A stretch of 64,000 nt of DNA from a virus, in the IMG/VR virus record IMGVR_UViG_3300046642_000296, positions 13,220 to 77,219 of that record. One strand, given 5' to 3'. Shown here piece after piece: positions 16,601 through 60,654 of this stretch. Under the pieces are notes generated by a model that saw only the letters and a program-made list of their open reading frames with translations, searched no databases and had not been told where the DNA came from. How positions within the stretch are numbered: the stretch's first letter is position 1; every line of letters starts with the position of its first letter. The position numbers were made by a program, and so were the translations under genes.

Positions 16601-19600
16601 CGGACCATTGGTCATGCCATCGGCCTCGAGGTACTTGGTCGTGGTGAACTTCGCACGCTCCTCCGCCGACGCATTCTGGAAGCGGGCGTACTCGGTCAGT
16701 GCATGCAGAGCCAGAGGAGAGATATCCTGGCCGGCTGCCGTGAACGCATCCTCCACCGTCTTCGTGGCCAGCGGTGCCTCATCCTTCAGCCACTTCTGGA
16801 AGTGCTCGACTGCCGGCGCAAAGACGCCATTGAGCAGGCCATCGAGCTTGCTGTGGATGTCGGCGTAGGCGAGGTTGTGCACCTTGATGCCAAGCGCCTG
16901 GGCCAGACCCAGTTCGAATGCCTGCATGTGCTTCGCATCGGTCAGATCGAGCGTGGCACGCGTGGGCAGCATCACTTCGCGGATGAGCTTCGTCGACTGC
17001 GGGTTGTACTTGCCGAGCATCTGCATGCGGCCCACCCGGCTCATGTTGTAGCCGTAGTGGTTGGGCACATCTTCGGGCGCAACACCCTGCTCCTGCGCCG
17101 TAGCCTCAATGGCTGCGTGCAGGTTCTGGAACTCCCGGTAAGCGGCCCGGATGGTCATGTTCTGACCGGCGAGTGATGCCTTGTGGTTGTCGTTGAGCGC
17201 TCGGCCTTCCAGATCCCCTGCCCCGAACCAGCGAAGCGCAACAGCCTCGGTCATGTCGTGATAGAGGCTGGCCATCGTCGGATTCAGAAAGTGCGGCGTG
17301 TCCTGCTCGTTCTTCAGTGCCGAGAGCTGGTCGCCCGTGTTCTTCACGTACTCATTGCGCATCTGGCGACGGGCCACGTCCGGACGCTGGTCATCGAAAT
17401 AGTAGGTCGGCGTCGACTTCGTGAGCACCGACTTTTCAATGAGGTCCGGGAACTTGCGGATCGCGTCTTCCTTGTCGAGCTTCACCGGCAGGATCCGGTT
17501 GATCGACTTGACGTGCTCACTCTCCACCGTGTCTTTCGTGGGATCGATCAGACCGCCGTTCTCGGACGTGTCCACCCAGATCTTGTCCGTGTCGATGAGA
17601 CCGTGCTCCTGCAGCGCACGCAGCACTTCGGCCGCCATCGACAGCGGGATACCTTCGGTGTAGCCGATCGGTGCGTCACGGTTTGCACGCACACCCCAGT
17701 ACTGCTGGATCTTCGCAGCGAGTGAGTCGAGTGCTTCGGTCGTGCCGATGCTGCCCTTCAGGCGGGTAACGAGCGTGTCATCGACAGCACCCACCGGAAC
17801 GCCGGTGAGCTCCGACGCATGCTGCGCATCGAACACATTGCCAAGCTGACCGGAGCCAAGAAACCAGGTCATGCCGGCGAGCGCTGCACCCTGCAGCAGC
17901 TGCTCGTTATACTGCAGCCGGCCGTCGACGTTTTCCGTCAGGTTCAGCAGCTTGCCATCGACCCAGCGGTGAGCATGAGCGGCCTTGCCTTCCTCATTGA
18001 GGAAGCGCTCGCCCACACGCTTGTCCGTGAGGAACTTGTCCAGGTTGTCACGCAGCGTGCCGAGGATCCGGTCAATGTCACGGAAGGCCGTGGCATAACC
18101 CTTCCATACATCCTTGCTGAACTCTTCCGGCATTGCTCGGATCGCCTGCTTCACCGAGTCGGCAATGGCCTGCACCGGCTCTTCATGAAGCACGACATTG
18201 CTCGGCGGCGTGTTCTCGTCAGCACCCCTGGCCGGTCGGAAAGCCTGGGTGAACTGGTTGCCACCGGCTTTCGGTTCGATCAGTTGCGGATAGGCCGCGG
18301 CCAGTCCCTGCTTCTGTTCAGCAACAGGCGCAGCCCCAACCTTCTCTGCAGGCTTTGCTTCGGGTTTGACTACCGGCGCAGCATCTGCCTTCACTGGCTC
18401 AGTTGTCTTGACCTCTGCCTTAACTTCAACCGGAGCCTGTTCAACCGGCTTGCTGGTAGGTGCCGGTGCAGCTTCCCTGGTGGCGACCTTCGGCTCAGCA
18501 GGCGTAACAGTCTGTTGCGGCGCCTGGCTCTTTGCCTGGACCGGCGTAGACTTTGCTGAACGGGTACCATCCTTGAATTCACGGACGACATCATCCAGTG
18601 AACCATCAGCCAGCCGGGAATCCAGAGGAGTCTGTGTCAGATGCTCAACATTCAGTTCGGGAAAAGCCGTACTCAGATGGTTGTGGAGGTCCGTCAGGAA
18701 CTTCGCCTCACTGGCTACTCGCCGGGCCAGAGCAACACTGGTCTTGCTCGTCGGATTGACGAACACACCTTCCTTCGACTTGCCGAAGCTGCGGTCCGCG
18801 TTGGCGGAGAGCGTCTCGTAATGGACCGTGCTTCGTACACCATCCTTGGCCGTAGCCAGATGCCCGTTGATCGCCGCGAGCTTGTTCTGCTGGCTCTGGG
18901 CAAACTTCTGGAGGTCAAGCAGCTGGCTGCGGGCACCATCGAGATCACCCGAACGGTACGCCGAGCGAATCGTCTGCGCATGGCCCAGCGCCGACTTCTG
19001 GAACGGGTTCGCCGCATCTTCCACAGCCACATTCTTCGCCACCAGATCCTGCGGGCTTAGCGGCTTGTCACCGTTGGCCGTCAGTTCATCGAAGTGCGTC
19101 TGGGCCGTCTTGAGCAATGCGGCCGCCGCCAGCAGGGCACGACGCTGCGGATCATTGAGCCCGATCGACGTAGCGTGTTTGAGCGCGATCTGCACCGACG
19201 GCAGATCCAGCTTCTGCGGCGCCACTTCAGCGAGGTTCGCAATCGTCTTCGCATCCGCCAGACCTTCCGGCGTCTGGACGCGTTGTTCGGTCAGCGGTTT
19301 GATGATGTCGGCTGCCCGGTCCACCAGGGTCTTCGCCGCACGGTCAGCGCGAGCCATCCCCGGAGTCGATTCCACACCCTTGGCGAATGTCGCCACGTCA
19401 TCAGCGAATGCACGGGCTTCATGCCCCTGTGGGAGGTCATCAAGGGCATGCGGATTGGCATCGGCAAAGCGGCCAATGTCAGCCTTCTCCTGCTCGAGCT
19501 GCGCCGCCACTGCAAGGCGATCGGCTTCCGGATGCTCCGTATCCTGCAGGTAGGCCTGCATGTTCTGGATCGCCGTGAAGCGGTTGGTCGCATCGCCGAC

Positions 19601-21559
19601 GGCCTGCTGGGCAGCCGGATGCCACTGCGCCACCTGCTCCGGTGAGAGCTCGGTGATCTTCGACGCCTGATCGAGGTAATCGTTGGCGCGAGCCTTCGCT
19701 TCCGGCGACAGGTCCGGCGTGTCGTTGACCGACTGCCTGAGTGCTTCCGCCTGGCTCGGTGCCGTGGCCTGCATGTCCTGTGCAGCCTGGGCAACCGTTT
19801 CATCGGCCACCGGCGAATCCTGCTCGTTCTGCTTCATGACTGCATCGCCACGATTGGCGAAATAGTCGGTCACCTTCGAGACATAGGGCTTCGCCGTCTG
19901 AACCAGGGAACCCAATGCCGAGCCTGCTGCGCCAGCGAGACCCGTACCGGTTTCAGCGACAGCTGAGCCCGCATCCTTCAGGGTCGAGAGACCCGCACGG
20001 ATCTGGTCGATGGCCGGGCTATTACGCGCAGCATCCACACCGGCACCGATGCCTTTGGCGGCGAGCGTAGCAGCACCGAGCGGCGCACGGATGGCTGCAC
20101 CCAGCGCCACACCAGGAGCTGCCACATGGCCGGCAGCCGCCGCACCATAGAGCGCACCCTGGCCGAACTGCTGACCTACGGAGTCGAGCAGATCCTGGGC
20201 CGGATTCGATCCCTGGCTCTCAGCGTAGTTCTGCGCTACCTGGCCTGTGGCGTTCTGCGTACCCTCTTCGAGCGCTTCCTTGCCCACGTTCTGCAAGGCC
20301 GTGCGCACACCACCGAGCTTGAACGGATGGGCTTCGAACGGTGCCACCAGTGCGCCAGTGAGCACGCCGGCCGGTGCCTGCCACTTCGCAGCCGTTGCGC
20401 CTTCATTGCCGGCGAGCGTGGCCCGTGCATCTTCCGGTGTCATGCCGCCCGCCACCAGCTTATTGAAAGCTGGCGACTGCTGGGCGAGCGTAGCCGGGTC
20501 CGTGTTCATCACATCAGCGGCGGTCTGCTGGTAAGCACCCGCCCCTTCCATCGCACCGATGGCCAGCGAACCAGGGACGTACTTCTCACCTGCCTGCACC
20601 GCGGCGTCGAGCAGCCGGGATGCGGAGTTCGTGCCGGTCGCACGGGCAATATCGGCTGACATGCCAAGACCGAGCCGGGCAGTTTCCGGCAGGATCGCCT
20701 TGCCGGTCGCACCGATCACCTTGGCGACCGGTCCCGTTGCAAGCAGCGATCCGACAGCATTCGAGGCGCCTTCTCCAAACGCTGTCGGATCTGCCACTTG
20801 ATGGCCCACCGAGTCAAGGACATTACGGCCTTCACGGCGCAATGTAGCCACCACGTCATGGCTGGGAGACTTGTAGCCCAGCGCAGCATCGAGCGCATTC
20901 AGTGAAGTTTCAACACTGCCCGGACTGGCAGCCTTCTCTTTCTCGAACTGGGCCTGGTTGTCCCGGCTCGTGAGCGAGTCGAGTGCGGCCACCTGGCTGG
21001 CACTGTCCTGGGCAGTCTGCGACTTGTAGCCTTGTTGCGTGTTTTGCCAGTCACCCAGGCTCTGCGCAATCGAGGCGCCGAGCTTCGGATCGATCACATG
21101 CGCGCCCAGTGCACCGAAGGAACCAAGGGTGGAAGCGAGACCGGTACCCAGCGAGTTGGCAGAGTCACCCAGGATCTGGCCCAGATCACGCGAGCGGGCA
21201 TCCTGATTGCCGACATCACGCGTGGCCGAGACATAGCGGTCCAGCATTTTCTGGCCTTCATCACCGTACTTGGCGACGAACGACACGGGGTCCATCGTGC
21301 GCAGGTCATGTTCAACCGGACTGGCTGATGCCAGACCCGCATTGCTTTGACGGCTGGCGGCCACAGCCAGCGGGTAATACGACTGCTGCGTGAGACCGGA
21401 GACTTTCTCGACGATCGAGGCCTGCTTGTCAGGCGTGAGGAAGGAGAGTTGCTGCTGGATCCGGGCGGAAGTCGCATCGAGCGACTGCGGAGCGTTGACC
21501 GGTGCCGGTGGTGCAGCTGCATTCGCAGCAGCGTCCAGCAGGGAATTCAGGTCTGCCAT
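10691..21559 (-). CDS. Virion-encapsidated RNA polymerase (N4 gp50-like)
   Basis: 3622 aa; MSRVGRMQM, motif A EADGMTNG, motif B RGIAKNPLTITIYG, motif C KIFDG; no Cys seen on reading. Confidence 0.98.
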   Translation of the reverse strand: MADLNSLLDAAANAAAPPAPVNAPQSLDATSARIQQQLSFLTPDKQASIVEKVSGLTQQSYYPLAVAASRQSNAGLASASPVEHDLRTMDPVSFVAKYGDEGQKMLDRYVSATRDVGNQDARSRDLGQILGDSANSLGTGLASTLGSFGALGAHVIDPKLGASIAQSLGDWQNTQQGYKSQTAQDSASQVAALDSLTSRDNQAQFEKEKAASPGSVETSLNALDAALGYKSPSHDVVATLRREGRNVLDSVGHQVADPTAFGEGASNAVGSLLATGPVAKVIGATGKAILPETARLGLGMSADIARATGTNSASRLLDAAVQAGEKYVPGSLAIGAMEGAGAYQQTAADVMNTDPATLAQQSPAFNKLVAGGMTPEDARATLAGNEGATAAKWQAPAGVLTGALVAPFEAHPFKLGGVRTALQNVGKEALEEGTQNATGQVAQNYAESQGSNPAQDLLDSVGQQFGQGALYGAAAAGHVAAPGVALGAAIRAPLGAATLAAKGIGAGVDAARNSPAIDQIRAGLSTLKDAGSAVAETGTGLAGAAGSALGSLVQTAKPYVSKVTDYFANRGDAVMKQNEQDSPVADETVAQAAQDMQATAPSQAEALRQSVNDTPDLSPEAKARANDYLDQASKITELSPEQVAQWHPAAQQAVGDATNRFTAIQNMQAYLQDTEHPEADRLAVAAQLEQEKADIGRFADANPHALDDLPQGHEARAFADDVATFAKGVESTPGMARADRAAKTLVDRAADIIKPLTEQRVQTPEGLADAKTIANLAEVAPQKLDLPSVQIALKHATSIGLNDPQRRALLAAAALLKTAQTHFDELTANGDKPLSPQDLVAKNVAVEDAANPFQKSALGHAQTIRSAYRSGDLDGARSQLLDLQKFAQSQQNKLAAINGHLATAKDGVRSTVHYETLSANADRSFGKSKEGVFVNPTSKTSVALARRVASEAKFLTDLHNHLSTAFPELNVEHLTQTPLDSRLADGSLDDVVREFKDGTRSAKSTPVQAKSQAPQQTVTPAEPKVATREAAPAPTSKPVEQAPVEVKAEVKTTEPVKADAAPVVKPEAKPAEKVGAAPVAEQKQGLAAAYPQLIEPKAGGNQFTQAFRPARGADENTPPSNVVLHEEPVQAIADSVKQAIRAMPEEFSKDVWKGYATAFRDIDRILGTLRDNLDKFLTDKRVGERFLNEEGKAAHAHRWVDGKLLNLTENVDGRLQYNEQLLQGAALAGMTWFLGSGQLGNVFDAQHASELTGVPVGAVDDTLVTRLKGSIGTTEALDSLAAKIQQYWGVRANRDAPIGYTEGIPLSMAAEVLRALQEHGLIDTDKIWVDTSENGGLIDPTKDTVESEHVKSINRILPVKLDKEDAIRKFPDLIEKSVLTKSTPTYYFDDQRPDVARRQMRNEYVKNTGDQLSALKNEQDTPHFLNPTMASLYHDMTEAVALRWFGAGDLEGRALNDNHKASLAGQNMTIRAAYREFQNLHAAIEATAQEQGVAPEDVPNHYGYNMSRVGRMQMLGKYNPQSTKLIREVMLPTRATLDLTDAKHMQAFELGLAQALGIKVHNLAYADIHSKLDGLLNGVFAPAVEHFQKWLKDEAPLATKTVEDAFTAAGQDISPLALHALTEYARFQNASAEERAKFTTTKYLEADGMTNGPVNAMALLSTGPFTADWVSNMRRGGLEIGGTAANTSSAIRSTPDGAADLYQATTDRLRSHLADLNQSLKSQGNDKVLQQQRHLMNLMDMFLPDLDIKDGKLEIGRGIAKNPLTITIYGSGANGIAAKMVGGMVDAIYERMSAAAQRMADAEEADQSVTPAEAFFPDDPLAEEKWAKFNQRINALIDSTAVYSSKKGQHYLIDTPAGENSTVSKGFTKFTFTPQELKNMSANMRTLFVDPLRGAIKDVVGDLEKSTNLIRQATQTQSIFMQHLFLQGVESALQAKEKANPDFGRDEFLSSNELNKVMESLAVFHPLVQTKDQSFFVAGSQNSGVDTTDFGRALDGSFRATAFVYGPANAGVAGIPFLNIGMGDGKMMQNLANDPRVRRTLKIFDGMNMPLDSITEQSQAANEAVLDSWRGNPMQAVSEAWGGFMKSVSSKLDLAKFIASNPELHDQLAKSLFGLGSSAKDVDVADIVSKMEATSKALQESALQIEARHNVMDRVNLSVDQMAAAGAPHVVDGKIQISGTDEEKAAQLANLYAEELEKLRAKAKTEEPVQQGVPVEQPEAAAANTQAAESADIAKQVNSLGRVDKSTGVRVLSTTAVNKIRTQAGIPEHQAAILKEIPRSLGAKGYKVISGTPEQLAKFAFNQSDTAAAFGPGVKGLTLPQSQRIYLINPSAETLTHELIHASTFETVHAFYQGSDLGANAAVVKDTIGRIETMMGQFLELDVSKESEAAQQAHADAVAAIHSVMDSSAEGKASALNEFMAWALASKDLAELGKKTVVSSLVQMAKDVFKAIRQLVYGRKQVPVTPGADMFSNLLFNSAVLMRTQPSVAQALRSTVLYQNSNYGTNPRLVELNKSFAGLLDSFSRQPMPADVASTGQAQANFAKVQAAGLALQVQAHGFPMSMQEASTFSLIAAALGTQAHIDPSSMARAQELYQHVTKNLMVEHFMKTDPQLDDPNDRYQAQQKYNMVMGDFGTSTDKAGRSSLMPVFLGLAMVNDDFRSVLQKMDLPKGEKSAAKSRLDAMLENLGMGLMGRLSDLMAGDTKSSNVRDSIDSLMRHVQDVAHDRESFMRQTWAGDAVDSLNATVVQGVERVTDKIIDSMQQVIDDPAASPLSKNLAKYAQVSARMATEKNGNKVAESVVALMNRANAWQPLHDLVYDFVGRTDENAPVYDMTKAVRAEISQDRQNYREHVPGIIADQFSRPLEDSEWSMLHRALGRTDIAALRSHFSHEDIQGMLGDAKTLDKAINDLEGKVQQADPANWNLYQKKMQQLAKFQMTGKVGTNLLRNAEAISRLFLEKSAKKTGKRDADFIRMVDHLTSLYALEQLSPTEKGMLASLVQQESAGLKFTTDYLVGQRAEEQRKAEQSPRGRINGFKGYIPEQQKTGVHLMVADDANYQALTERSYVRVADYKGSSADGLKGRMGYYFAPVSSRTLFNQGIFQNVRQSVNGVDIGSGFNNSSMIAGRITDRAEVARTALNLARGESGMEPLMPVFDEKGVPVAFERSIDPQQAQRAVSEQNLAQMIGVWRGRQVEEAKAQEFNNALIDALHARYEADIRESASNQKEYVNLSDPRELAKDPVIADAVKLMTPETRQRIKAVFGDHFYVSRDMLHDAMGYRNASVGDVFTGNSRWSPETQEYMKRVMIGMFGNKAYQYFTNAEKTLQNFIGDAKTLIVVKSVVVPVTNMLGNMLQLVGRGVPIKHIAMGAPRKIAETNFYVKGRQQQIQLEAQMRTATEDPVATRKLSAQWQSIEDSFKRLSIHPLIQAGEFTGISDASRVGSDDIALTSGKVQSYLEAQVDKLPKALQTAGRYALVTKDTALFKGLQKSVEYGDFIAKALLYDDLTKRQNKSSAYALSRVTEEFVNYDKLPGRFRGYLESMGLLWFYNFKIRAAKVAMSMVRNNPVHSLLAASVPIPHMFGSVGTPLGDNFFTKLMDGGLTHSFGVGQVFHAPMMNPWVNIFG

Positions 21560-50753: not shown

Positions 50754-51092
50754 ATGACGCAATCGACGCTGCTCACACAGTTTTACCGTGCGTATACCGC
50801 ATGGATTGACGACGGTGCGCCTAAGCGCGTCCTCTTCAGACGGGATGCAGGCCTGTGCCGCAATGTCATGGTCTGGGCCGAGGCAATTGGTCAGGAAGGA
50901 CTTCAGGTAAGACTGCTTCGTGATGAGTTACGAACGCAGCTGAAGCAGGCAGGGATGGACATGGATTACCCATTCAGCCCGGCTGATGCCCAACACGGCC
51001 CACACCACTATTACTACAGCATCGAGACGAACGCTGAAATCTGTCACCTGAATGAACGTCGTATCGCATGGGTAAGGGAGCACGCAGCATGA
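50754..51092 (+). CDS. Hypothetical protein
   Basis: Coupled ORF. Confidence 0.7.
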   Translation: MTQSTLLTQFYRAYTAWIDDGAPKRVLFRRDAGLCRNVMVWAEAIGQEGLQVRLLRDELRTQLKQAGMDMDYPFSPADAQHGPHHYYYSIETNAEICHLNERRIAWVREHAA

Positions 51093-51421
51093 ATGAACTG
51101 ACCGTCGTCAACAAATTCCATGGCAAGTGGCCCAACCGTCGCTATGTCTACATCGGCAGACCCTCACCTCTCGGCAACCCAGTCAAGGTTGAACCGGGAG
51201 TATCGCAGGAAGATGCCGTGTACCTCTACAAGGAGCATCTGCACGAGCAGATGCAAGCTGGTAACGAGGCCATCATCAGTGAACTGGAGCGCATCGGAGC
51301 GATGGTGATGGATGACTCAGGTGAACCTGTGTGCCTGATGTGTTTCTGTGCACCCAAGGTATGTCACGGTGATGTGATCAAGAAGGTAATTGAACGGGCT
51401 ATCGCGGAGCAGACAACATGA
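51089..51421 (+). CDS. DUF4326 family protein
   Basis: VYIGRPSPLGNP...LMCFCAPKVCHGDVI. Confidence 0.85.
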   Translation: MNELTVVNKFHGKWPNRRYVYIGRPSPLGNPVKVEPGVSQEDAVYLYKEHLHEQMQAGNEAIISELERIGAMVMDDSGEPVCLMCFCAPKVCHGDVIKKVIERAIAEQTT

Positions 51422-52032: not shown

Positions 52033-52251
52033 ATGCTGTCCATCGAGAAGCAGAAGAATCTGTTCACCGCCAACCCGCTCAACCAGGAAGAAATCGTGGT
52101 GATGAGCGAAGGCAACCGGGCGGTCAGATCCTTCGAGACGCGAGAAGAAGCCATTGACTGGATCATCGAACGCAACAAGCGTCCGGGCGTGCACCCGAAG
52201 GTGCGCATCGTGAAGAAGACCACACAATTCGAGGAGCTGGGCTATGTCTGA
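52033..52251 (+). CDS. Hypothetical protein
   Basis: AAGGAG RBS before MLSIEK. Confidence 0.65.
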   Translation: MLSIEKQKNLFTANPLNQEEIVVMSEGNRAVRSFETREEAIDWIIERNKRPGVHPKVRIVKKTTQFEELGYV

Positions 52252-53074
52252 TTCAGGGATCCAAGCAAAGCGTGCTGCGCACCAGATCGAGCTCGAGCAG
52301 CTGTTCAGCAAGAACCAGCTCATGCCGCGCATCCGTGCGGAATTCGAAGGCTGCAAGGAAGTGAACTTCCGTGAGTACGCCGAGGAAAACGGCATACCCG
52401 GTGATTTCGTCATCGAGCTGCTGGCCCAGATGGCCCTGCACAAGCGTGCTGACCTGCCGACGATGGTCGGCTGCCTGCGTTACCTGTGCGCATCGGGTCA
52501 GGAATGTGCCGATCTGCTGCTGAAGTGCGCGATGGCTGACCTGATGGACTGGTCCCCTACCCTGCACATCTTCATCGTGAAATTCACGATCAGTGCTGAT
52601 GTGCAGGCTGAACTGGACCGCTTCCAGTATCCGTTGCCGATGGTCATCGAGCCGCGGGAAGTGAAGCACAACAGCCAGTCGGGCTACTTCCTGAACAGCG
52701 GCTCGATCATCCTGAAGAACAACCACCATGACGATGATGTGTGCCTTGACCACATCAATCGCATGAACCGTGTGAAGTTCAAGGTCAACTTCGATACGGC
52801 CACCATGATCAAGAACCAGTGGAGAAACCTTGACAGACCAAAGGATGGAGAAACCGCAGCGGATTTTGATCGTCGGGTCCGGGCCTTCGAAAAGTATGAC
52901 CGCACAGCTAAGGATGTTATCGCCAAGCTCATTGAGCACGGTAACGAGTTCAACTTCACGCACAAGTACTGCAAACGCGGCCGCACGTATTGCCAGGGGC
53001 ATCACGCCAATTACCAGGGCACAGCCTGGAATAAGGCCGTCATCGAATTCGCTGATGGCGAAGTCACTCGATAG
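52244..53074 (+). CDS. RNA polymerase II subunit 1 (N4 gp15-like)
   Basis: FQYPLPMV, THKYCKRGRTYCQGHHANYQG. Confidence 0.92.
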   Translation: MSDSGIQAKRAAHQIELEQLFSKNQLMPRIRAEFEGCKEVNFREYAEENGIPGDFVIELLAQMALHKRADLPTMVGCLRYLCASGQECADLLLKCAMADLMDWSPTLHIFIVKFTISADVQAELDRFQYPLPMVIEPREVKHNSQSGYFLNSGSIILKNNHHDDDVCLDHINRMNRVKFKVNFDTATMIKNQWRNLDRPKDGETAADFDRRVRAFEKYDRTAKDVIAKLIEHGNEFNFTHKYCKRGRTYCQGHHANYQGTAWNKAVIEFADGEVTR

Positions 53075-53127
53075 GATCCTGCAAGTAAGCAAGGAAGATT
53101 GGAACCTTTGAACCAAGGAAGGAAGGA

Positions 53128-53310
53128 ATGAGCGTTCGCATACAGCAGATAGCCGCTGCCATCGCCCGATTCGAAGAAGCGGTGCGTGCGCACGAAACCA
53201 AAGGCGCCCAGCGGCCCGAGGACATCAAGGACATCGTTGAAGAATACAACGAGTCACTGGCGCACCTCACGGACCTGATCGCTGAATCCATCAACGAGCG
53301 AATGGCATGA
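53128..53310 (+). CDS. Hypothetical protein
   Basis: RBS and ATGA coupling. Confidence 0.6.
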   Translation: MSVRIQQIAAAIARFEEAVRAHETKGAQRPEDIKDIVEEYNESLAHLTDLIAESINERMA

Positions 53311-53414
53311 GCAAGGAATGGTCGACGGTGCGCTGCACCTGCATCAACTACCGTGGACTGGCATGCCGCAAGTGCTATGCGCCCTTCTACAAACTGTTTC
53401 CATATCTGAAATGA
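53307..53414 (+). CDS. 35-aa Cys-rich peptide (not in ORF track)
   Basis: MSKEWSTVRCTCINYRGLACRKCYAPFYKLFPYLK; ATGA overlaps at both ends. Confidence 0.5.
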   Translation: MSKEWSTVRCTCINYRGLACRKCYAPFYKLFPYLK

Positions 53415-53581
53415 CGACACTCGAAGACATGCAGGAAGCCTGCGACGTGTGCGGTGACGAGCTGGAGATCGGACAGATCGGCATCTGCGGATTCTGCGCG
53501 GAGCACACCAGCCATGTCACTCGCACTGAGTCGGCGCCGCAGCCGCGTCGCTGGGATCCTTTGAACGAAGTAACCAAGTAA
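53411..53581 (+). CDS. Small zinc-finger-like protein
   Basis: CDVC...CGFC. Confidence 0.55.
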   Translation: MTTLEDMQEACDVCGDELEIGQIGICGFCAEHTSHVTRTESAPQPRRWDPLNEVTK

Positions 53582-53602
53582 CCAAGTAACCAAGGAAAGA
53601 AG
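53571..53602. repeat. Tandem TAACCAAG octamers (candidate parS part)
   Basis: TAACCAAG x3 then GAAAGAAG. Confidence 0.7.
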
Positions 53603-53604
53603 TA

Positions 53605-53841
53605 ATGAACCCGCATCGCTACAACCCACTCACGGAAACCAGCACCGGCCGGCTGCCGAAGAAACCTGAGAGCCGCATTGGTGTGACACTCGGCCATGGC
53701 TGCACACTGGAGCTCATGGACGACAACACGCTGCAGCTGCTCAACCGTGATACCAAGGAAACTTTGAACCTTGGTCCCGCACCGAGCGCCGGCAGCGCAC
53801 TGCAGTACGCGCTTGAACGACTGCAGATTCACTTCAAATGA
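53605..53841 (+). CDS. Hypothetical protein
   Basis: 78-aa ORF between repeat clusters. Confidence 0.6.
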   Translation: MNPHRYNPLTETSTGRLPKKPESRIGVTLGHGCTLELMDDNTLQLLNRDTKETLNLGPAPSAGSALQYALERLQIHFK

Positions 53842-53931
53842 ACCAAGGAAGCAAGGAAGGCGGGAGGGAAGTCTCCAAGGAATGAGGGTTATCTCCCTCG
53901 CTGGATCCTTGGAAGTCTCCCTCGCTCGCTC
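53840..53931. repeat. CAAGGA repeat cluster upstream of parA (candidate centromere/operator)
   Basis: CCAAGGAA, GCAAGGAA, CCAAGGAA, inverted TCCTTGG, GGAAGTCTCC x2, TCTCCCTCGCT x2. Confidence 0.65.
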
Positions 53932-54003
53932 CTGCACAGGATACTTGCATCCCTCCGGGATTGGTTTACCGTATACGGTTGAACCAACCATTGCGGAGTT
54001 CGC

Positions 54004-54648
54004 ATGTACACCATCGTCTTCTCCTGCCAGAAGGGCGGAGTAGGCAAGACCCTGCACACAGCCCATCTGGCTGTGGCGCTAGAAGGCATGGGGCAAGGCC
54101 CAGTCGTCACGATGGATCTGGACCCCCAGGGCACGCTCTCAGACTGGTGGAATGACCGCGAAGCCGATGCACCGGCATTCGCCCAGGTCGAGAACCACAG
54201 CCAGCTCGAAGCGAAGAAAGCCCAGCTCAAGGCGGCCGGCTACAAGTGGCTGGTGATCGACACGCCGCCACAGGTGGCCGAGATAAACCTGGCCGCCATC
54301 CAGATAGCTGACCTCGTGATCATCCCGTCCAAGCACAGCAAGGGCGACATCAAGGCTACCCTGCCGACGGTCGACATGTGCGAGGCAACAGGTACGAAGT
54401 TCTTTTACCTGCTTAACGAGACGAACGGTGCCGGCGTCACAGCCTCAGCCGTGCGGCAGCTGGCCTCGATCGGCCCGGTCATCCCGCATACGATCCCGAA
54501 GCTCAATGGCTACTGGCAGTCCATGATTCCCGGCAAGACGATCAACGAGATCAACAAGGGAACCGGCGCCATTCTGATCGAACAGCTGGCCCAGTTTGTC
54601 GTCAGCAAGTTCGAAAAGCCCGTGAAGAAGGAGAAAGCCCATGTCTAA
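54004..54648 (+). CDS. parA: Partition ATPase, type Ib (ParA/ParF-like)
   Basis: Deviant Walker A KGGVGKT, DLDPQG, VIDTPP; 214 aa without N-terminal HTH. Confidence 0.95.
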   Translation: MYTIVFSCQKGGVGKTLHTAHLAVALEGMGQGPVVTMDLDPQGTLSDWWNDREADAPAFAQVENHSQLEAKKAQLKAAGYKWLVIDTPPQVAEINLAAIQIADLVIIPSKHSKGDIKATLPTVDMCEATGTKFFYLLNETNGAGVTASAVRQLASIGPVIPHTIPKLNGYWQSMIPGKTINEINKGTGAILIEQLAQFVVSKFEKPVKKEKAHV

Positions 54649-55009
54649 GGCACCCTCACTCGACTCCGCGGTGATCGTCCGTAAAGGCTACGCCGCACCT
54701 GCAGCCAGTACGGGTGCAATGGTAGAGCCTTCCGTTGTGGCACCGAGGGAACCCGCCAAGGAACCTTCCAAGGATGTCTCCAAGGAACCTTCCAACCAAG
54801 GAACCAGGGAAGAAAGGAAGCGGGCCTGGCACCAGCCGGGGCAGGACGAGTGGAAGAAGACGAACTACGAGATGCCGTTGCGGGTGCAGACCAAGCTCAA
54901 GGAAATGAAGAACTGGGGCTACATCCCGAACGTCTACAAGTTCGTGGCCGAGGCCGTCGAGAAGGAGATCGACAAGGTGATCGCCAAGGCTGAGAAGGAG
55001 GGCTACTGA
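54641..55009 (+). CDS. Putative centromere-binding adaptor (ParG-like, RHH-type C-terminus)
   Basis: Overlaps parA; disordered N-terminus, then strand-helix-helix pattern KKTNYEMP-LRVQTKLKEMK-VYKFVAEAVEKEI. Confidence 0.65.
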   Translation: MSKAPSLDSAVIVRKGYAAPAASTGAMVEPSVVAPREPAKEPSKDVSKEPSNQGTREERKRAWHQPGQDEWKKTNYEMPLRVQTKLKEMKNWGYIPNVYKFVAEAVEKEIDKVIAKAEKEGY

Positions 55010-55620
55010 TGTCAGCCGCTCCGAGTCCTGACGAGAAGGAGCAGTTCGAGCTGTTCAAGGCTGAGACGACGTGGTTTCACGTCTTTCGCTCGATGATCGA
55101 GGGTGGCGACGTTGCCAAAATGGGGCCGGGCGCCTTCACGGTCTACGCGGTGGTCAAGGCACACACGAACTTCAGCACGGGTAGGGCATTCCCTGGTATC
55201 GAGCTGATCGCCGAGAAGTCGGGCATCTCCACCCGGCAGGTCATGCGTGAGCTGGCCGTGCTGGAGGAACATGGCTACCTGACCAAGGTGAAGCAGGGCC
55301 GCCAGAACATCTACACCCTGCGGGAGAAGGTAGGCATCCAGGACGACCATGGCAGGCCTGTGGCCGCTGCATCGTGGGACTACCTGCCTGCAGGCGTGGC
55401 CAACGCCGTGGCAGACCTGAAACACGTCATGATGACGGGCGACTTCGCCGGCGCCAAGATCGTCAACATCGAGAAGCTGACGGTCAACATCAACAACTTT
55501 CACGATAATTCGACCCAGATCAACATGGACAAGCTCATGGCTGACATGGACAAGCTGGATCCGCCCATGCGAGCCTTGCTCATGGCGAACCTGGAACGCC
55601 GCCAGAATGAGCAGAAATAG
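55009..55620 (+). CDS. HTH protein, putative replication initiator
   Basis: AFPGIELIAEKSGISTRQVMRELAVLEEHGYL winged HTH (HTH_36-like); iterons start 7 bp after stop. Confidence 0.7.
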   Translation: MSAAPSPDEKEQFELFKAETTWFHVFRSMIEGGDVAKMGPGAFTVYAVVKAHTNFSTGRAFPGIELIAEKSGISTRQVMRELAVLEEHGYLTKVKQGRQNIYTLREKVGIQDDHGRPVAAASWDYLPAGVANAVADLKHVMMTGDFAGAKIVNIEKLTVNINNFHDNSTQINMDKLMADMDKLDPPMRALLMANLERRQNEQK

Positions 55621-55626
55621 CCGGAT

Positions 55627-55824
55627 AGGTGACTACCTGGCACATATCGGAAAGGTGACAGGCTGTCACGTATCAATAGGTGACTGTCTGGCAGGTGTTT
55701 ACAGGTGACAGCCAGTCCTGTGTATAAATACGTGACTGTGTGGCATGTGTCAGACGGTCAGCCGACAATCTGTCATAGGTGACTGTGTGGCAGGTGTTAC
55801 TCAGGAACAGGTGACTGTGTGTCA
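55627..55824 (+). repeat. Iteron array, 7 copies of about AGGTGACWGNNTGKCA
   Basis: Copies start at 55627, 55653, 55678, 55703, 55730, 55777, 55809. Confidence 0.9.
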
Positions 55825-55874
55825 CCCTAACAAGAAGAGATGTTTACGTTAACAATATGCGAATCTGACGGGAG

Positions 55875-55883
55875 TTATCCACA
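55875..55883 (+). promoter_or_regulatory. DnaA box
   Basis: Exact TTATCCACA about 50 bp after last iteron, past an AT-rich tract. Confidence 0.7.
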
Positions 55884-56595: not shown

Positions 56596-57837
56596 ATGCA
56601 GAAATTCACCGGAATGCAATACCTGGCCATCGACATCGCCTCGAACTACGGTCTGGACAAGAAGACCTGGGACGAGCGTCTGGCCTGGTTCGAGCAGCAC
56701 AGGGACTGCCTGCACGAGATGCTGGCCACGGCCGAGACGCCGGCGCTCTACTACGCAGGCGTGAAAGCCTATGAGGCAGCGCTGGCCGGGCAGCCGTCGG
56801 GCTATCCGGTCTCGCTCGATGCCACCAGCTCGGGCCTGCAGATCCTCGCCGCAGTGACGGGTGACCGCAAGGCAGCTGAGCTCTGCAACGTGGTCAACTC
56901 CATGGAGGAATACCTCGACACCGTCACCAATGTGGTGATGGAACGCATCGCACGTGCTGACGCCTATACCGGCGTCTATGGCGCCATGGTCGAGAAGATC
57001 GGGGAAGAGGGCAAGATCAAGCGTGAGGACACCAAGCAGGCCATCATGACCTCGCTCTATGGCTCCAAGGCCGTGCCCAAGGAAGTGTTCGGCGAAGGCA
57101 TCCTGCTGCAGATCTTCTACGACACCATGGCTGAACTGGCCCCGGCCGCATGGGAGCTGAACCAGGTGTTCCTCGACATCTGGAATCCGGAGGCGCTGGT
57201 CAACAGCTGGGTGCTGCCGGATAACTTCCACGTGCACGTCAAGGTCATGAGCCAGGTGAAAGAAACGGTTCACTTCCTCAACGAGCCGTTCGACACCTTC
57301 CGCAAGGTCAACGCACCGGTCGATGAAGGCCGGTCACTGGGTGCCAACACCATTCACAGCCTCGACGGCATGATCGTTCGGGAGATGAACAGGCGTTGCA
57401 ACTACAGCAAGCAGCGTATCAACGACCTGAAGATGATGTTTGCCGGAAAGAAGCACATCACAACCACGGAAAGTGACAACGAAATGGTCTCCATATTATG
57501 GGGACTGTACGAACAATCAGGCTACCTGTCGGCCAGGATCCTGGACCATCTGGGCAATGATAACTTTGGGGTCGTCAACTCCCTGGATATCGCCAGACTG
57601 ATTGAGTCACTGCCGGAGAAGCCGTTCCAGATCATGACCATCCATGACTGTTTCCGGTGTCTACCGAACTATGCCAACGATCTGCGTGAGCAATACAACC
57701 TTCAACTCACACTCATTGCCCGCTCAAACATACTTGACTTCCTGTTGAGTCAGCTTGTGGGCCGTTCTGTTGAGTGTGGGAAGGTGGACGACACGCTCTG
57801 GCAAGACATCCAGCACGCTGAGTACGCATTGAGCTGA
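56596..57837 (+). CDS. RNA polymerase II subunit 2 (N4 gp16-like)
   Basis: Motif A SLDATSSGLQ, motif B REDTKQAIMTSLYG, ANTIHSLDG, motif C TIHDCF. Confidence 0.95.
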   Translation: MQKFTGMQYLAIDIASNYGLDKKTWDERLAWFEQHRDCLHEMLATAETPALYYAGVKAYEAALAGQPSGYPVSLDATSSGLQILAAVTGDRKAAELCNVVNSMEEYLDTVTNVVMERIARADAYTGVYGAMVEKIGEEGKIKREDTKQAIMTSLYGSKAVPKEVFGEGILLQIFYDTMAELAPAAWELNQVFLDIWNPEALVNSWVLPDNFHVHVKVMSQVKETVHFLNEPFDTFRKVNAPVDEGRSLGANTIHSLDGMIVREMNRRCNYSKQRINDLKMMFAGKKHITTTESDNEMVSILWGLYEQSGYLSARILDHLGNDNFGVVNSLDIARLIESLPEKPFQIMTIHDCFRCLPNYANDLREQYNLQLTLIARSNILDFLLSQLVGRSVECGKVDDTLWQDIQHAEYALS

Positions 57838-57878: not shown

Positions 57879-58180
57879 ATCTCTGAAGGGACGGTTCCGT
57901 ACCTAGCACGATTCACCCTGAATCAAACATGTGATTTACCACTTTTACAACACTCTGATCGTTCACCGCCAGGCATTTCCCTTGCAGATCAAGGCTTCAC
58001 CCTGCTTACAGCACCTTTCCTGCACGGTTACGTTTAGAAACAAGTTTGAGAAGTTATTTACATTTTAGGGAGCCTTTAGCTAGAATTATTTGCAGGACGC
58101 GAAGTTGTTGAACGGCAAGGATTACCGACCAGTTCGGTGTTTTTCTGGGTGTTGGGGTTCTTCCCATACACAACCAATTC

Positions 58181-58208
58181 AGCTCACCACCGGTGAGCTT
58201 TTTTATTG
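58181..58208 (+). terminator. Intrinsic terminator
   Basis: AGCTCACC-ACC-GGTGAGCT-TTTTT. Confidence 0.75.
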
Positions 58209-58239
58209 ATCTGGGTCTAGCGATCCAAGGAGCCACGCA

Positions 58240-58545
58240 GTGCGCATCAATCCTTTCTCTGCTGCCAAACAACATCTCTGGAACGGCGAGCAGTCGGGTG
58301 GGGAGCGCTTCATGTGCCACGCAATCAGCCGTGCACAGAAGGCAGGACAGATCACGGAAGCAGACCGCATGACGGCCAACCGGATGATTCACACCCGGCT
58401 GGGCGAGTACCCGTATGTGGAGTCGTGGCTGTGCAATGAGGCTGGCGTGCTGTGCAGCCAGCTCGATCCTGTGGATGTGCAGGCTTATCGTTTTCTCTGG
58501 CTCGAAGATCTTGAAAAACACTGGAACCAAGGGGTAAGGGAATGA
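58240..58545 (+). CDS. Hypothetical protein
   Basis: AAGGAG RBS, GTG start. Confidence 0.65.
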   Translation: MRINPFSAAKQHLWNGEQSGGERFMCHAISRAQKAGQITEADRMTANRMIHTRLGEYPYVESWLCNEAGVLCSQLDPVDVQAYRFLWLEDLEKHWNQGVRE

Positions 58546-59291
58546 TTTTTCCGCAGCAGGAACGTGTTGTTCGCCAGATCCGGCATGTGATGGGCGTCTT
58601 CGCTGAGAGCGAAGGAGCCATCCGGCCGCACTTCCACCTGACCGGTCCGAGCGGATCGGGCAAGACCTATCTGCTCAAGCAGATAGCTGACGACATGCGA
58701 CTGCCATTTCTGGAGGTCAATGCAGCGGGTCTGACGGCTGAAGGCCTGTCGGGCAACTCACTGTCCAAGGCACTGCGCAAGCTGCGTGAGCACTGGGACA
58801 AGCCGAACATCGTCTTCGTCGACGAGTTCGACAAGCTGTTCCAGCGCAACGGCGAGTCGACCGAAGGCTTTCGCTCGATGGTGCAGGACGAGTTCCTGAC
58901 TGCGCTGGAAAGCCGCTACACGTCGATCTTCACCGACTACGGCAAGTACGAGCCGGTGCGCATCGACAACTCGCTCTTCATCTTCGCCGGCGCCTACTCG
59001 AACCAGAAAGTGGAAACGATCCAGGCGCTGAAGGAAGTGGGCCTGCGTCGTGAGTTCGTCGGCCGGGTGCCGCTCGTGTTCTACACGGAAGAGGTGCCGG
59101 TCTCCGAGCTGCGCAAGGTGATCCCGAAGCTCGACCTGTACCAGCAGTACAAGGCGCTGTATCCGAACACCAGCGACTCGGTGGCCTCGAAGGCAATCGC
59201 CGCGGTGATCGAGCAGCAGAACAAGGAACTGGGCATCGGCATCCGCCTGCTCAACTCCGCCGTCCACCAGCATTTCATGCGAGACATCTAA
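58542..59291 (+). CDS. ClpX/HslU-like AAA+ ATPase
   Basis: GPSGSGKT, VFVDEFDK, FIFAGAY, GLRREFVGRVP. Confidence 0.85.
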   Translation: MIFPQQERVVRQIRHVMGVFAESEGAIRPHFHLTGPSGSGKTYLLKQIADDMRLPFLEVNAAGLTAEGLSGNSLSKALRKLREHWDKPNIVFVDEFDKLFQRNGESTEGFRSMVQDEFLTALESRYTSIFTDYGKYEPVRIDNSLFIFAGAYSNQKVETIQALKEVGLRREFVGRVPLVFYTEEVPVSELRKVIPKLDLYQQYKALYPNTSDSVASKAIAAVIEQQNKELGIGIRLLNSAVHQHFMRDI

Positions 59292-59647
59292 TGAGCAGCG
59301 CAGACAAACGTAGTCCCCACACCGACGCACTCGAAACGCTCGGCATGATCCACTTCAAGCCCGAAGCACGGGACGCTATCCATCTGGCTGTCGAGCCGAT
59401 CGAAGCCGGCGAGCGTCTTCGCCCGAACGACGACATCGGCATCTACAACGGCAAGGCATACCAGGCCGGCGAACGTGAGATCGATAGCGAAGTGGTCAAG
59501 GTCAAGGCGCTCGGCAAGGTCGATCCGTTCCTGCCCAACACGAAGTTTGTGCAGGCAGGCCAGAAGTTCTGGCTGGTCGTCTATCCGCGCATGATCACGT
59601 CACTTCGCCACGTCTGGGAGCATCCGGACTTCAGCAAGGAGGCATGA
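59291..59647 (+). CDS. Hypothetical protein
   Basis: RDAIHLAV...GKVDPFL...SLRHVWEHPDF. Confidence 0.75.
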   Translation: MSSADKRSPHTDALETLGMIHFKPEARDAIHLAVEPIEAGERLRPNDDIGIYNGKAYQAGEREIDSEVVKVKALGKVDPFLPNTKFVQAGQKFWLVVYPRMITSLRHVWEHPDFSKEA

Positions 59648-59991
59648 TGGCTCACCCATACCCGATGGAAGAGCACGACGCCCGCCGCATGTGCGGTGAT
59701 CCGCGGGCACTGGCCTATGAGTGGATCAAGGCTTACGCCGAGAACCTGTCGGACCGTGCTGAAGGCAACGGCTACAACTCGGCGCCGATCACTGTCGAAG
59801 AACTGATCCAAACGGCAATAAGCCATCTCCCGGACGAGGAAGGTAATAGCCGCTGGGGTGACTACATCACCCGCGGCGGCACGTTCGAAGGAGAGAGCAC
59901 CGACCCTGTGTTCTGGGAGAAGCTCGCCATCCTGAAGGACATCGAGATCCCGAACGACAAGCGGAGCAACTTTTTCAGCTGTTCGTGCTAA
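59644..59991 (+). CDS. Hypothetical protein
   Basis: Coupled; ends FFSCSC. Confidence 0.75.
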   Translation: MMAHPYPMEEHDARRMCGDPRALAYEWIKAYAENLSDRAEGNGYNSAPITVEELIQTAISHLPDEEGNSRWGDYITRGGTFEGESTDPVFWEKLAILKDIEIPNDKRSNFFSCSC

Positions 59992-60007
59992 CGGCAGGAG
60001 AACAACG

Positions 60008-60271
60008 ATGAGTAGTACTACGCAGCGGGCTGCCCCGCAAAACCTGCTCGAGATCGAGATGCTGATCCAGGCGCACTGCCTGGCCCAGTACAAGCCCCGG
60101 CAGTCGGAAGCACACGACGACGCGCTGAACCGGCTGCTCAAAGCCGACATGCTGAAGCTGAACCCGGATCTGAGCGTGACGACCACCTTGCGTGGTCAGT
60201 TCTGGGTCGATCACCTGGCCACCATTCCGTACCCGGTGGAGAGTTACAAGATTCCGGAGACACAGCCATGA
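60008..60271 (+). CDS. Hypothetical protein
   Basis: AGGAG RBS. Confidence 0.7.
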   Translation: MSSTTQRAAPQNLLEIEMLIQAHCLAQYKPRQSEAHDDALNRLLKADMLKLNPDLSVTTTLRGQFWVDHLATIPYPVESYKIPETQP

Positions 60272-60654
60272 GCAGCACAGTCCGTCAATACGGCTTCATC
60301 GCCGCGCTCAAGGACGCCATCGACGACGATGAGCGTGAGGCCGGCAATGAGAACCAGTGGGAGAACAAGACCGGTATTCGTGTCGGTTACTCCGGCGAAC
60401 TGGTGTACATCGATTTCAACTACGAGAAGGGCATCCGGGAACGGGAAAACTTCTACGGTCTTTTCCTTGGCTCGGCCAAGCCATTGCCGGGCGAGAGCCG
60501 GGAAGACTTCGTAGCGGCGATGCACCGGTGGATGTATGACATCGAGATCGACTCGATCCAGCCGTACAGCTGCATTTACTACAACGGTAGCGACAGCCCC
60601 TTGGACATGTTGACCAAGAAGGGGTTGCTGGCCGGGGAGGCAAGTGATCTGTGA
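60268..60654 (+). CDS. Hypothetical protein
   Basis: Coupled ORF. Confidence 0.7.
   Translation: MSSTVRQYGFIAALKDAIDDDEREAGNENQWENKTGIRVGYSGELVYIDFNYEKGIRERENFYGLFLGSAKPLPGESREDFVAAMHRWMYDIEIDSIQPYSCIYYNGSDSPLDMLTKKGLLAGEASDL

Follow-up and report, generated by a model that had tools for sequence, protein, structure and literature searches.

The stretch of DNA analysed here (64,000 nt, hereafter the window) covers positions 13220-77219 of the 77,219-bp IMG/VR virus record IMGVR_UViG_3300046642_000296, which is rated 100% complete; coordinates given below without another reference are those of the window. In the early region of this N4-like phage genome, a cassette of three genes and two zones of repeats is situated between the genes for the small (RNAP1) and large (RNAP2) subunits of the phage RNA polymerase II (RNAPII), in the same orientation as both. 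The genes encode a ParA ATPase, a 122-aa protein and a helix-turn-helix (HTH) protein of the HTH_36 type. The cassette is real, intact and conserved, and very probably works as a partition (par) module together with a replicon (rep) of an uncharacterised family.

The original prediction described a translationally coupled operon for ParA, a small adaptor and an HTH protein, flanked upstream by short direct repeats and downstream by seven iterons, an AT-rich tract and a DnaA box. This anatomy was found as described (Table 1). The small gene shares 8 nt (ATGTCTAA) with the end of parA and 1 nt (TGATG) with the start of the HTH gene. Upstream, AACCAAGT is repeated with an 8-nt period, and a block of CCAAGG/CCTTGG units precedes parA; 8 of the 21 genome copies of CCAAGGAA fall within 53113-54796. 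Downstream, seven copies of GGTGAC-N5-GKCA start at 55628, 55654, 55679, 55704, 55731, 55778 and 55810, five of them exact and two with one mismatch. Only one further exact match is present in the whole window; matches with at most one mismatch number 25 against 12.3 ± 3.8 in shuffled sequences, with none of 100 shuffles reaching 25. The lowest GC content of any 30-nt segment (27%, 55828-55857, in a 59%-GC genome) lies directly behind the iterons and is followed by the DnaA box; the origin contains no match to an IHF consensus.

Table 1. Features of the par-plus-replicon cassette and of its insertion site (window coordinates).
Feature	Position	Strand	Remarks
RNAP1, N4-type RNAPII small subunit	52244..53074	+	phrog_2166, 4.5e-101; left flank of insertion site
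Tandem 8-nt repeats AACCAAGT/AACCAAGG, upstream of orf78	53564..53603	+	repeat families D1-D3; outer candidate centromere/operator zone
orf78, 78 aa, no family	53605..53841	+	44% conserved in one other N4-like carrier (L027)
Candidate parC/operator: direct and inverted CCAAGG/CCTTGG units, two GAAGTCTCC copies	53841..53933	+	just 5' of parA
Perfect 12-bp palindrome ACCGTATACGGT, 24 nt before parA start	53968..53979		DNA alignment A5
ParA, 214 aa	54004..54648	+	PF13614/PF01656; phrog_164, 1.5e-30
122-aa ParA partner (candidate, ParG/omega-like)	54641..55009	+	18 homologues; no named family
HTH_36 winged-helix protein, 203 aa, candidate replication initiator	55009..55620	+	PF13730, 2.9e-10; phrog_28562, 5e-28
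Seven semi-palindromic iterons GGTGAC-N5-GKCA	55628..55824	+	spacing 26, 25, 25, 27, 47, 32 nt
Conserved origin core CCCTAAC-AAGAAGAGAT..TTAACAATA and AT-rich tract	55825..55874	+	candidate DNA-unwinding element
Perfect DnaA box TTATCCACA	55875..55883	+	sole perfect box in 77,219-bp genome
RNAP2, N4-type RNAPII large subunit	56596..57837	+	phrog_2051, 5.5e-161, PF00940; right flank

The ParA protein carries a deviant Walker A motif (KGGVGKT, residues 10-16) and lacks an N-terminal HTH. It matched NF041546 with 1.1e-33, below the cut-off of that family, and its nearest solved chains are a ParA (5u1g) and ParF of TP228 (4dzz). Small size, the deviant Walker A motif and the lack of an N-terminal DNA-binding domain are the features of type Ib ParA proteins, and the protein is accordingly classed as a small type Ib partition ATPase.

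The 122-aa protein matched no Pfam or NCBIfam family. Its homologues (n = 18) are conserved in the N-terminal tail (..VIxRKGxAAPA) and in the C-terminal domain, which a variable KEPSKE linker joins. In the predicted complex with ParA (score 0.68, best control 0.00), residues 11-28 of the partner, i.e., the conserved tail, are placed on ParA; the model runs agree in at least 59% of contacts, with a partner pLDDT of at least 62. The 0.68 mark is reached by 58 of 80 solved complexes and by 2 of 110 mismatched pairs and, since complexes of ParA with partner peptides have already been solved, the model shows likeness and is not proof of contact. Residues 75-122 could be aligned over 40-48 residues with ribbon-helix-helix (RHH) proteins (ParD2, PrpA, omega of pSM19035, NikR and PutA; root-mean-square deviation 2.0-3.1 Å), at Z values of 3.3-4.6, which lie below the level that excludes chance. 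No sequence match of RHH type was obtained for this protein, and a Foldseek search with its model returned nothing significant. The modelled C-terminal domain is suggestive of an RHH-like fold. The protein, which the original prediction had called a small adaptor, is better read as a candidate ParG/omega-like centromere-binding partner of ParA.

Repeats of the CCAAGG/CCTTGG type recur 5' of parA in related loci (L014, L006 and L013; compared loci are designated by L numbers). Inside the small gene, these hexamers are enriched about 12-fold across the related loci (13.0 per kb vs 1.1 per kb background). The KEPSKE linker (54745-54810, and likewise in the related loci) is encoded by the same CCAAGG/CCTTGG units as the region upstream of parA, and the repeats encoding it may be selected as DNA, that is, as an intragenic centromere, rather than as peptide. 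The palindrome ACCGTATACGGT is located inside a conserved block of about 45 nt before parA in all three N4-like carriers of the cassette (window, L014, L027), and is missing from both non-N4 cassettes aligned (L028, L049). It may represent an operator tying the cassette to phage control.

For the HTH protein, which has 424 homologues, PF13730 is the sole family passing the Pfam cut-off. Its weak PHROG matches are to initiator, O-like (1.7e-6 and 1.8e-6) and DnaD-like families, and its neighbours in a protein language model partly carry DnaD_N or RP-C domains. The AlphaFold2 (AF2) model consists of a single winged helix, with residues 127-170 at low confidence. Direct repeats, an AT-rich tract and a DnaA box adjoin the gene, which is the layout of DnaA-dependent iteron origins.

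This layout is common to about 30 non-identical loci in phages, plasmids and chromosomes, where the HTH gene is followed by 3-7 palindromic repeats, a CCCTAAC..AGAT..TTAACAA AT-rich core and at least one DnaA box. In the 350 nt after the HTH gene, DnaA boxes with at most one mismatch occur at 3.74/kb, compared with 0.18/kb elsewhere in the same loci, i.e., about 20-fold more often. The CCCTAAC/AT-rich core is kept in the phage copies and in the copies on chromosomes or integrative conjugative elements (ICEs) though their iterons differ, and a similar AT-rich stretch is present in the copy on a Polaromonas plasmid. The loci L028 and L049, whose HTH proteins are 99% identical, have identical iterons and origins; HTH proteins with 20-27% identity to that of the window are followed by unrelated palindromes, with the AT-rich tract and the DnaA box retained. 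By these comparisons, the sequence of the iterons co-varies with the HTH protein. In L006, the entire origin is inverted relative to the HTH gene. Conserved layout, enrichment of DnaA boxes and co-variation of the iterons together make a strong case, though one from context, for the HTH protein as a replication initiator. The combination of an HTH_36 protein, palindromic iterons, the CCCTAAC/AT-rich core and a DnaA box is a replicon family unnamed in any curated database.

The two halves of the cassette are also met apart. On a Burkholderia chromosome, an element contains an HTH-origin unit without ParA, with a tyrosine integrase on one side and NikA/type IV secretion system genes on the other. 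This unit (L017; Burkholderia sp. LMG 32019 chromosome 2, 3097411-3113983) has iterons, the CCCTAAC core and DnaA-like boxes, is accompanied by TrbL-type transfer genes and looks like the replication module of an ICE. The ParA/small protein pair, in its turn, also occurs with unrelated HTH alleles. Occurrence of the HTH-origin unit without ParA and of the ParA/small pair with unrelated HTH proteins argues for two modules instead of one tripartite partition system. The small proteins of L028 and L049 are only 39% identical despite their 99% identical HTH proteins, and in L006 and L037 the small proteins are 98% identical with HTH proteins only 26% identical. The rep and par parts, judging from these alleles, recombine independently. 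The HTH protein, grouped by the original prediction with ParA and the small protein in one operon, is better regarded as a candidate initiator that belongs to a rep module of its own.

The 104-kb Polaromonas plasmid pA29BJ2, with genes for metabolism, toxin-antitoxin systems, restriction and mobilisation, has the whole cassette of three genes together with DnaA boxes; it has no phage genes, and no other initiator is annotated for it in the PLSDB gene table, which is incomplete. In IMG/VR, the cassette occurs in about two dozen contigs. Two further N4-like genomes (74.7 and 78.5 kb), from other samples, have the cassette at the same RNAP1-RNAP2 site with all three genes intact, so that the verified N4-like carriers at this site are three, window included. 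Close homologues are found on records of 76,958, 78,537, 76,984, 74,921 and 65,357 bp. A nucleotide search of the phage collection with the cassette returned nothing, and a metagenome scan with the small protein gave two short fragments among the matches listed. In Burkholderia phage HN01, a cultured relative, the site of the cassette is occupied by no more than four small open reading frames (ORFs).

Among the three N4-like carriers, identity is 66-74% for ParA and 75-79% for the small protein; in the flanks, it is 67-83% for RNAP1 (83% and 67% in the two other carriers, compared with the window) and 68-76% for RNAP2. The small proteins of these carriers group together, while each of their HTH alleles is closer to the alleles of other elements. 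A cassette as diverged as its flanks, with HTH alleles closer to those of other elements, suggests that par was kept vertically and rep was replaced. Such replacement would be expected if incompatibility matters.

At least two non-N4 carriers are genomes of 35-44 kb with a T7-like 846-aa single-subunit RNA polymerase. The carriers with this polymerase are L011 and L013 (IMGVR_UViG_3300046459_000067 and 3300046531_000068), and L042 also has the cassette; the genomes are 35-46 kb in size. In the records of L013 and L042, a tyrosine recombinase of about 310-330 aa is encoded within a few kb of the cassette. L011, L013 and L042 may represent T7-like phage-plasmids.

A plasmid form of an N4-like genome is on record in Acinetobacter. 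Among 72,556 PLSDB plasmid records, an N4-type capsid together with RNAP2 was found only in pRBH2-3 (NZ_CP110465.1), a complete 75,126-bp N4-like genome from the clinical isolate A. baumannii RBH2. Its ParA, small and HTH_36 genes form a homologous overlapping operon, with palindromic repeats and the CCCTAAC motif behind it. A query of 18.5 kb taken from this plasmid (L003) shows 98.3% identity, over 94% of its length, to the phage vB_IME_Ab2712 (OK149216.1; a phage record marked unverified), which is the only one with an HTH homologue among 474 phage records with the N4-type capsid. The sole N4-like plasmid record is thus the same element as the sole cultured N4-like phage bearing the cassette, a coincidence that is unlikely to be due to chance, albeit in a single case. 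The pair resembles the window in its 75-kb N4-like genome, the same order of three overlapping genes, the palindromic repeats and CCCTAAC; it differs in the location of the cassette elsewhere in the genome, an extra serine resolvase and a gammaproteobacterial host. The resolvase (L003 14189-14821; 210 aa, PF00239 and HTH), which has no counterpart in the genome of the window, likely serves multimer resolution. Another protein of pRBH2-3 (749 aa; L050 41105-43354, i.e., pRBH2-3 58104-60353) is named "chromosome partitioning protein ParB" by RefSeq. Its gene lies in the structural block, which makes the N4-type portal its probable identity; if so, the ParB label misleads name-based screens for phage-plasmids.

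The backbone of the genome is that of Schitoviridae (N4-like phages). A 3622-aa ORF at 10691-21559 is read as the virion RNA polymerase (vRNAP) from its size and position, RNAPII consists of two subunits, and the major head protein is of N4 type (phrog_1357, 2.7e-144), with the capsid protein 82-85% identical to those of cultured Erwinia, Burkholderia, Achromobacter and Pseudomonas N4-like phages. The virion and lytic replication genes, stated in the original prediction to be intact, have full-length family matches: DNA polymerase, exonuclease, primase, major head protein, portal, TerL and both RNAPII subunits. A complete phage gene set and plasmid-type replication and partition genes are therefore carried by one replicon, as in phage-plasmids. 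Apart from the polymerase subunits, the sole small ORF of the early region with a clear family is a 117-aa DUF4326 protein (51068-51421, 9.8e-15).

The ends of the genome are a 127-bp direct terminal repeat (genome positions 1-127 = 77093-77219). The usual largest k-mer of assemblers is 127 bp, and a repeat of this length shows a circular assembly path only, not a circular plasmid form; it is probably the k-mer overlap of an assembler and not a true phage terminal repeat. In the cultured relative HN01, the terminal repeat is 407 bp. The stretch is present in three sequencing runs only, all of them rhizosphere metagenomes, two of which may be the source sample; no RNA run is listed.

The cassette could operate as follows. 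Lying in the early transcription unit, the operon would be expressed straight after injection. The CCAAGG-type repeats 5' of parA would serve as centromere and operator, bound by the RHH-like 122-aa protein, whose N-terminal tail would activate the small Walker-type ParA. The HTH_36 protein would bind the seven semi-palindromic iterons, as lambda O does its palindromic repeats, and together with host DnaA at the adjacent box could open the 27%-GC tract, after which the host replisome would copy the circularised genome in theta mode. The purpose of such a system would be inheritance of the genome as a low-copy plasmid (phage-plasmid or stable carrier state) instead of constant lysis. On balance, we consider it rather probable that the cassette enables phages of this N4-like clade to exist as plasmids or in a carrier state. 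The partition module and the DnaA-dependent iteron origin claimed by the original prediction are well supported by the conserved layout, the co-variation, the occurrence on a real plasmid and on a conjugative element and the predicted protein interface; that this particular phage persists as an extrachromosomal prophage, as was also claimed, is a matter of lifestyle that we infer, with indirect backing from the distantly related Acinetobacter pair pRBH2-3 and vB_IME_Ab2712.

Several observations weigh against a plasmid state. The original prediction had looked to a circular contig from a bacterial isolate, and the record is a metagenome contig with the assembler-type end overlap described above. 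Neither an integrase nor a resolvase, of the tyrosine or the serine recombinase type, was found anywhere in the 77,219-bp genome, so that the lack of a visible integrase noted in the original prediction extends beyond the window. An HTH_3 repressor is likewise absent from the genome, none of 20 early-region ORFs matched a regulator family (many small ORFs are familyless and may hide a novel repressor), and a consensus scan detected no sigma-70-like promoter 5' of parA. The HTH protein falls into no curated initiator family: Rep_3 was not matched, NCBIfam gave nothing, and it has one winged helix in place of the two winged-helix domains of Rep_3/RepA-type initiators. Structure searches with it returned generic winged helices only, including the centromere binders TubR and AspA, and no initiator structure was among the Foldseek matches of its model. 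The cassette of pRBH2-3 has only 33% (ParA) and 37% (HTH) identity to that of the window and no clear DnaA box, and the plasmid record may stem from a carrier culture and not from a stably kept plasmid. A search for the N4 capsid protein in 5 bacterial genomes with an HTH homologue and in 401 sampled Burkholderiales genomes gave no match but, run with no positive control, carries little weight.

The same cassette could be explained by a role in the lytic cycle, in which an early host-driven theta round precedes the phage DNA polymerase and ParA positions the DNA, with no plasmid state involved. Its early-region site between the RNAPII genes in their orientation would suit this role, as would the lack of a repressor and of a promoter-like site 5' of parA. 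However, 473 of the 474 phage records with the N4-type capsid have no HTH homologue, so phages of this type can grow lytically with no such cassette; a plasmid and a conjugative element carry the same module; and partition acts across cell divisions, which are absent from lytic infection. A lytic function is therefore unlikely. The cassette could also be a selfish plasmid-derived passenger, using the phage as a vehicle or acting as an incompatibility or exclusion weapon against resident plasmids, again with no latent state. Free recombination of rep and par among unrelated phages, plasmids and ICEs is in agreement with this, and so are the HTH alleles of the three N4-like carriers, closer to those of other elements than to each other. 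It is made quite unlikely by the same site and three intact genes in three genomes whose core genes are 67-83% identical, by the grouping of the small proteins of the N4-like carriers and by the cost that 2.3 kb of useless DNA would have under the packaging limits of a 75-kb podovirus.

Two other explanations concern the nature of the cassette itself. All three genes could belong to a single three-protein partition system of the pNOB8 kind (ParA/ParB/AspA), with the HTH protein as centromere binder, the small protein as adaptor and the seven repeats as centromere instead of origin. The three genes are indeed translationally coupled, and TubR and AspA are among the best solved relatives of the HTH domain (E 8e-4 to 8e-3). 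Yet the AT-rich core and DnaA boxes always come after the HTH/repeat unit; this unit is found without ParA in the ICE, and the ParA/small pair with unrelated HTH proteins; the small protein has a putative RHH-like DNA-binding domain and upstream repeats of its own; and the PHROG and Atlas neighbours of the HTH protein are initiator-type domains (O-like, DnaD_N, RP-C). A tripartite system is very improbable on these grounds. Finally, a plasmid fragment and a phage contig could have been joined into a chimera, as the record comes from a metagenome assembly with the assembler-typical 127-bp end overlap. This is hardly credible given the same synteny in two more N4-like contigs from other samples, a cassette GC content (57.5%) near that of the genome (58.8%) and the presence of a 10-kb stretch in two sequencing runs (word shares 1.00 and 0.99), both of which may be the source sample.

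With plasmid inheritance as the preferred reading, the lack of a repressor could be accommodated in a more speculative way, which taken as a whole is doubtful: N4-like phages would become plasmids without a repressor, the silent genome being kept by the par/rep cassette, and the HTH_36 replicon would make podovirus lineages phage-plasmids. The early promoters would be read only by the RNA polymerase injected with the virion, so that a genome outside this cascade, or one outliving the injected enzyme, would fall silent with only the par/rep cassette active. A rare burst of vRNAP or RNAPII expression could restart the lytic programme. The site between the RNAPII genes, with the iterons about 700 bp 5' of RNAP2, could couple replication control to this switch. 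In this way, a widespread and mobile HTH_36 replicon could turn several "virulent" N4-like and T7-like soil lineages into phage-plasmids.

The par module resembles the type Ib systems (ParF/ParG/parH of TP228; delta/omega of pSM19035) in its ParA of about 210 aa without N-terminal HTH and in the upstream repeats; the small partner, with a flexible tail predicted to lie on ParA and a putatively RHH-like C-terminus, would be a further likeness. It differs in that the partner is familyless and has a KEPSKE linker, and that CCAAGG units with the 8-nt period also fill the coding sequence of the partner. The rep module shares with the DnaA-dependent iteron origins (P1 oriR, F oriS, pSC101, pPS10, RK2 oriV) the repeats, the AT-rich tract, the DnaA box or boxes and an adjoining initiator gene, but a 203-aa single-winged-helix HTH_36 candidate takes the place of the two-winged-helix Rep_3/RepA, the repeats are semi-palindromic and the origin lies 3' of the gene. 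Lambda O and ori-lambda are similar in the direct copies of a palindromic site, the presumably dimeric HTH initiator and the AT-rich tract that follows, as well as in the weak PHROG matches; here, in contrast, the origin is not contained in the gene, a P-like helicase loader is lacking, DnaA boxes are found and sequence similarity is weak.

With the phage-plasmids P1, N15, SSU5 and Acinetobacter AB_1, the genome has in common a virion/lytic gene set accompanied by replication and partition genes and the lack of an integrase; it differs in the N4-like backbone and in that no repressor was found. Few phage-plasmids are Podoviridae (PMC7969092), and AB_1 represents a siphovirus group of 101-122 kb (PMC12977533); the terms "N4-like" and "Schitoviridae" are absent from the census papers searched. 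Lysogeny was proposed for some N4-like viruses by Zheng et al. 2023 (PMC10654107) from integrases, transposases, diversity-generating retroelements and proviruses, in a text containing neither "plasmid" nor "partition". Those N4-like proviruses likewise argue that the group is not strictly lytic, and differ from the present case in having an integrase. In a literature search covering RBH2, pA29BJ2 and the virus group, no paper on N4-like phage-plasmids came up.

Phages of the N4 type, taken to be obligately lytic, are a common choice for therapy and biocontrol (e.g., against Pseudomonas, Klebsiella, Achromobacter, Erwinia and Burkholderia). With pRBH2-3 and vB_IME_Ab2712, a culturable pair is available for a direct test of the plasmid idea. 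The HTH_36 replicon family is common to plasmids, conjugative elements and two types of podovirus. If this N4-like clade does persist as a plasmid, assumptions on safety, ecological models for phages in soil and the podovirus-poor census of phage-plasmids would have to change.

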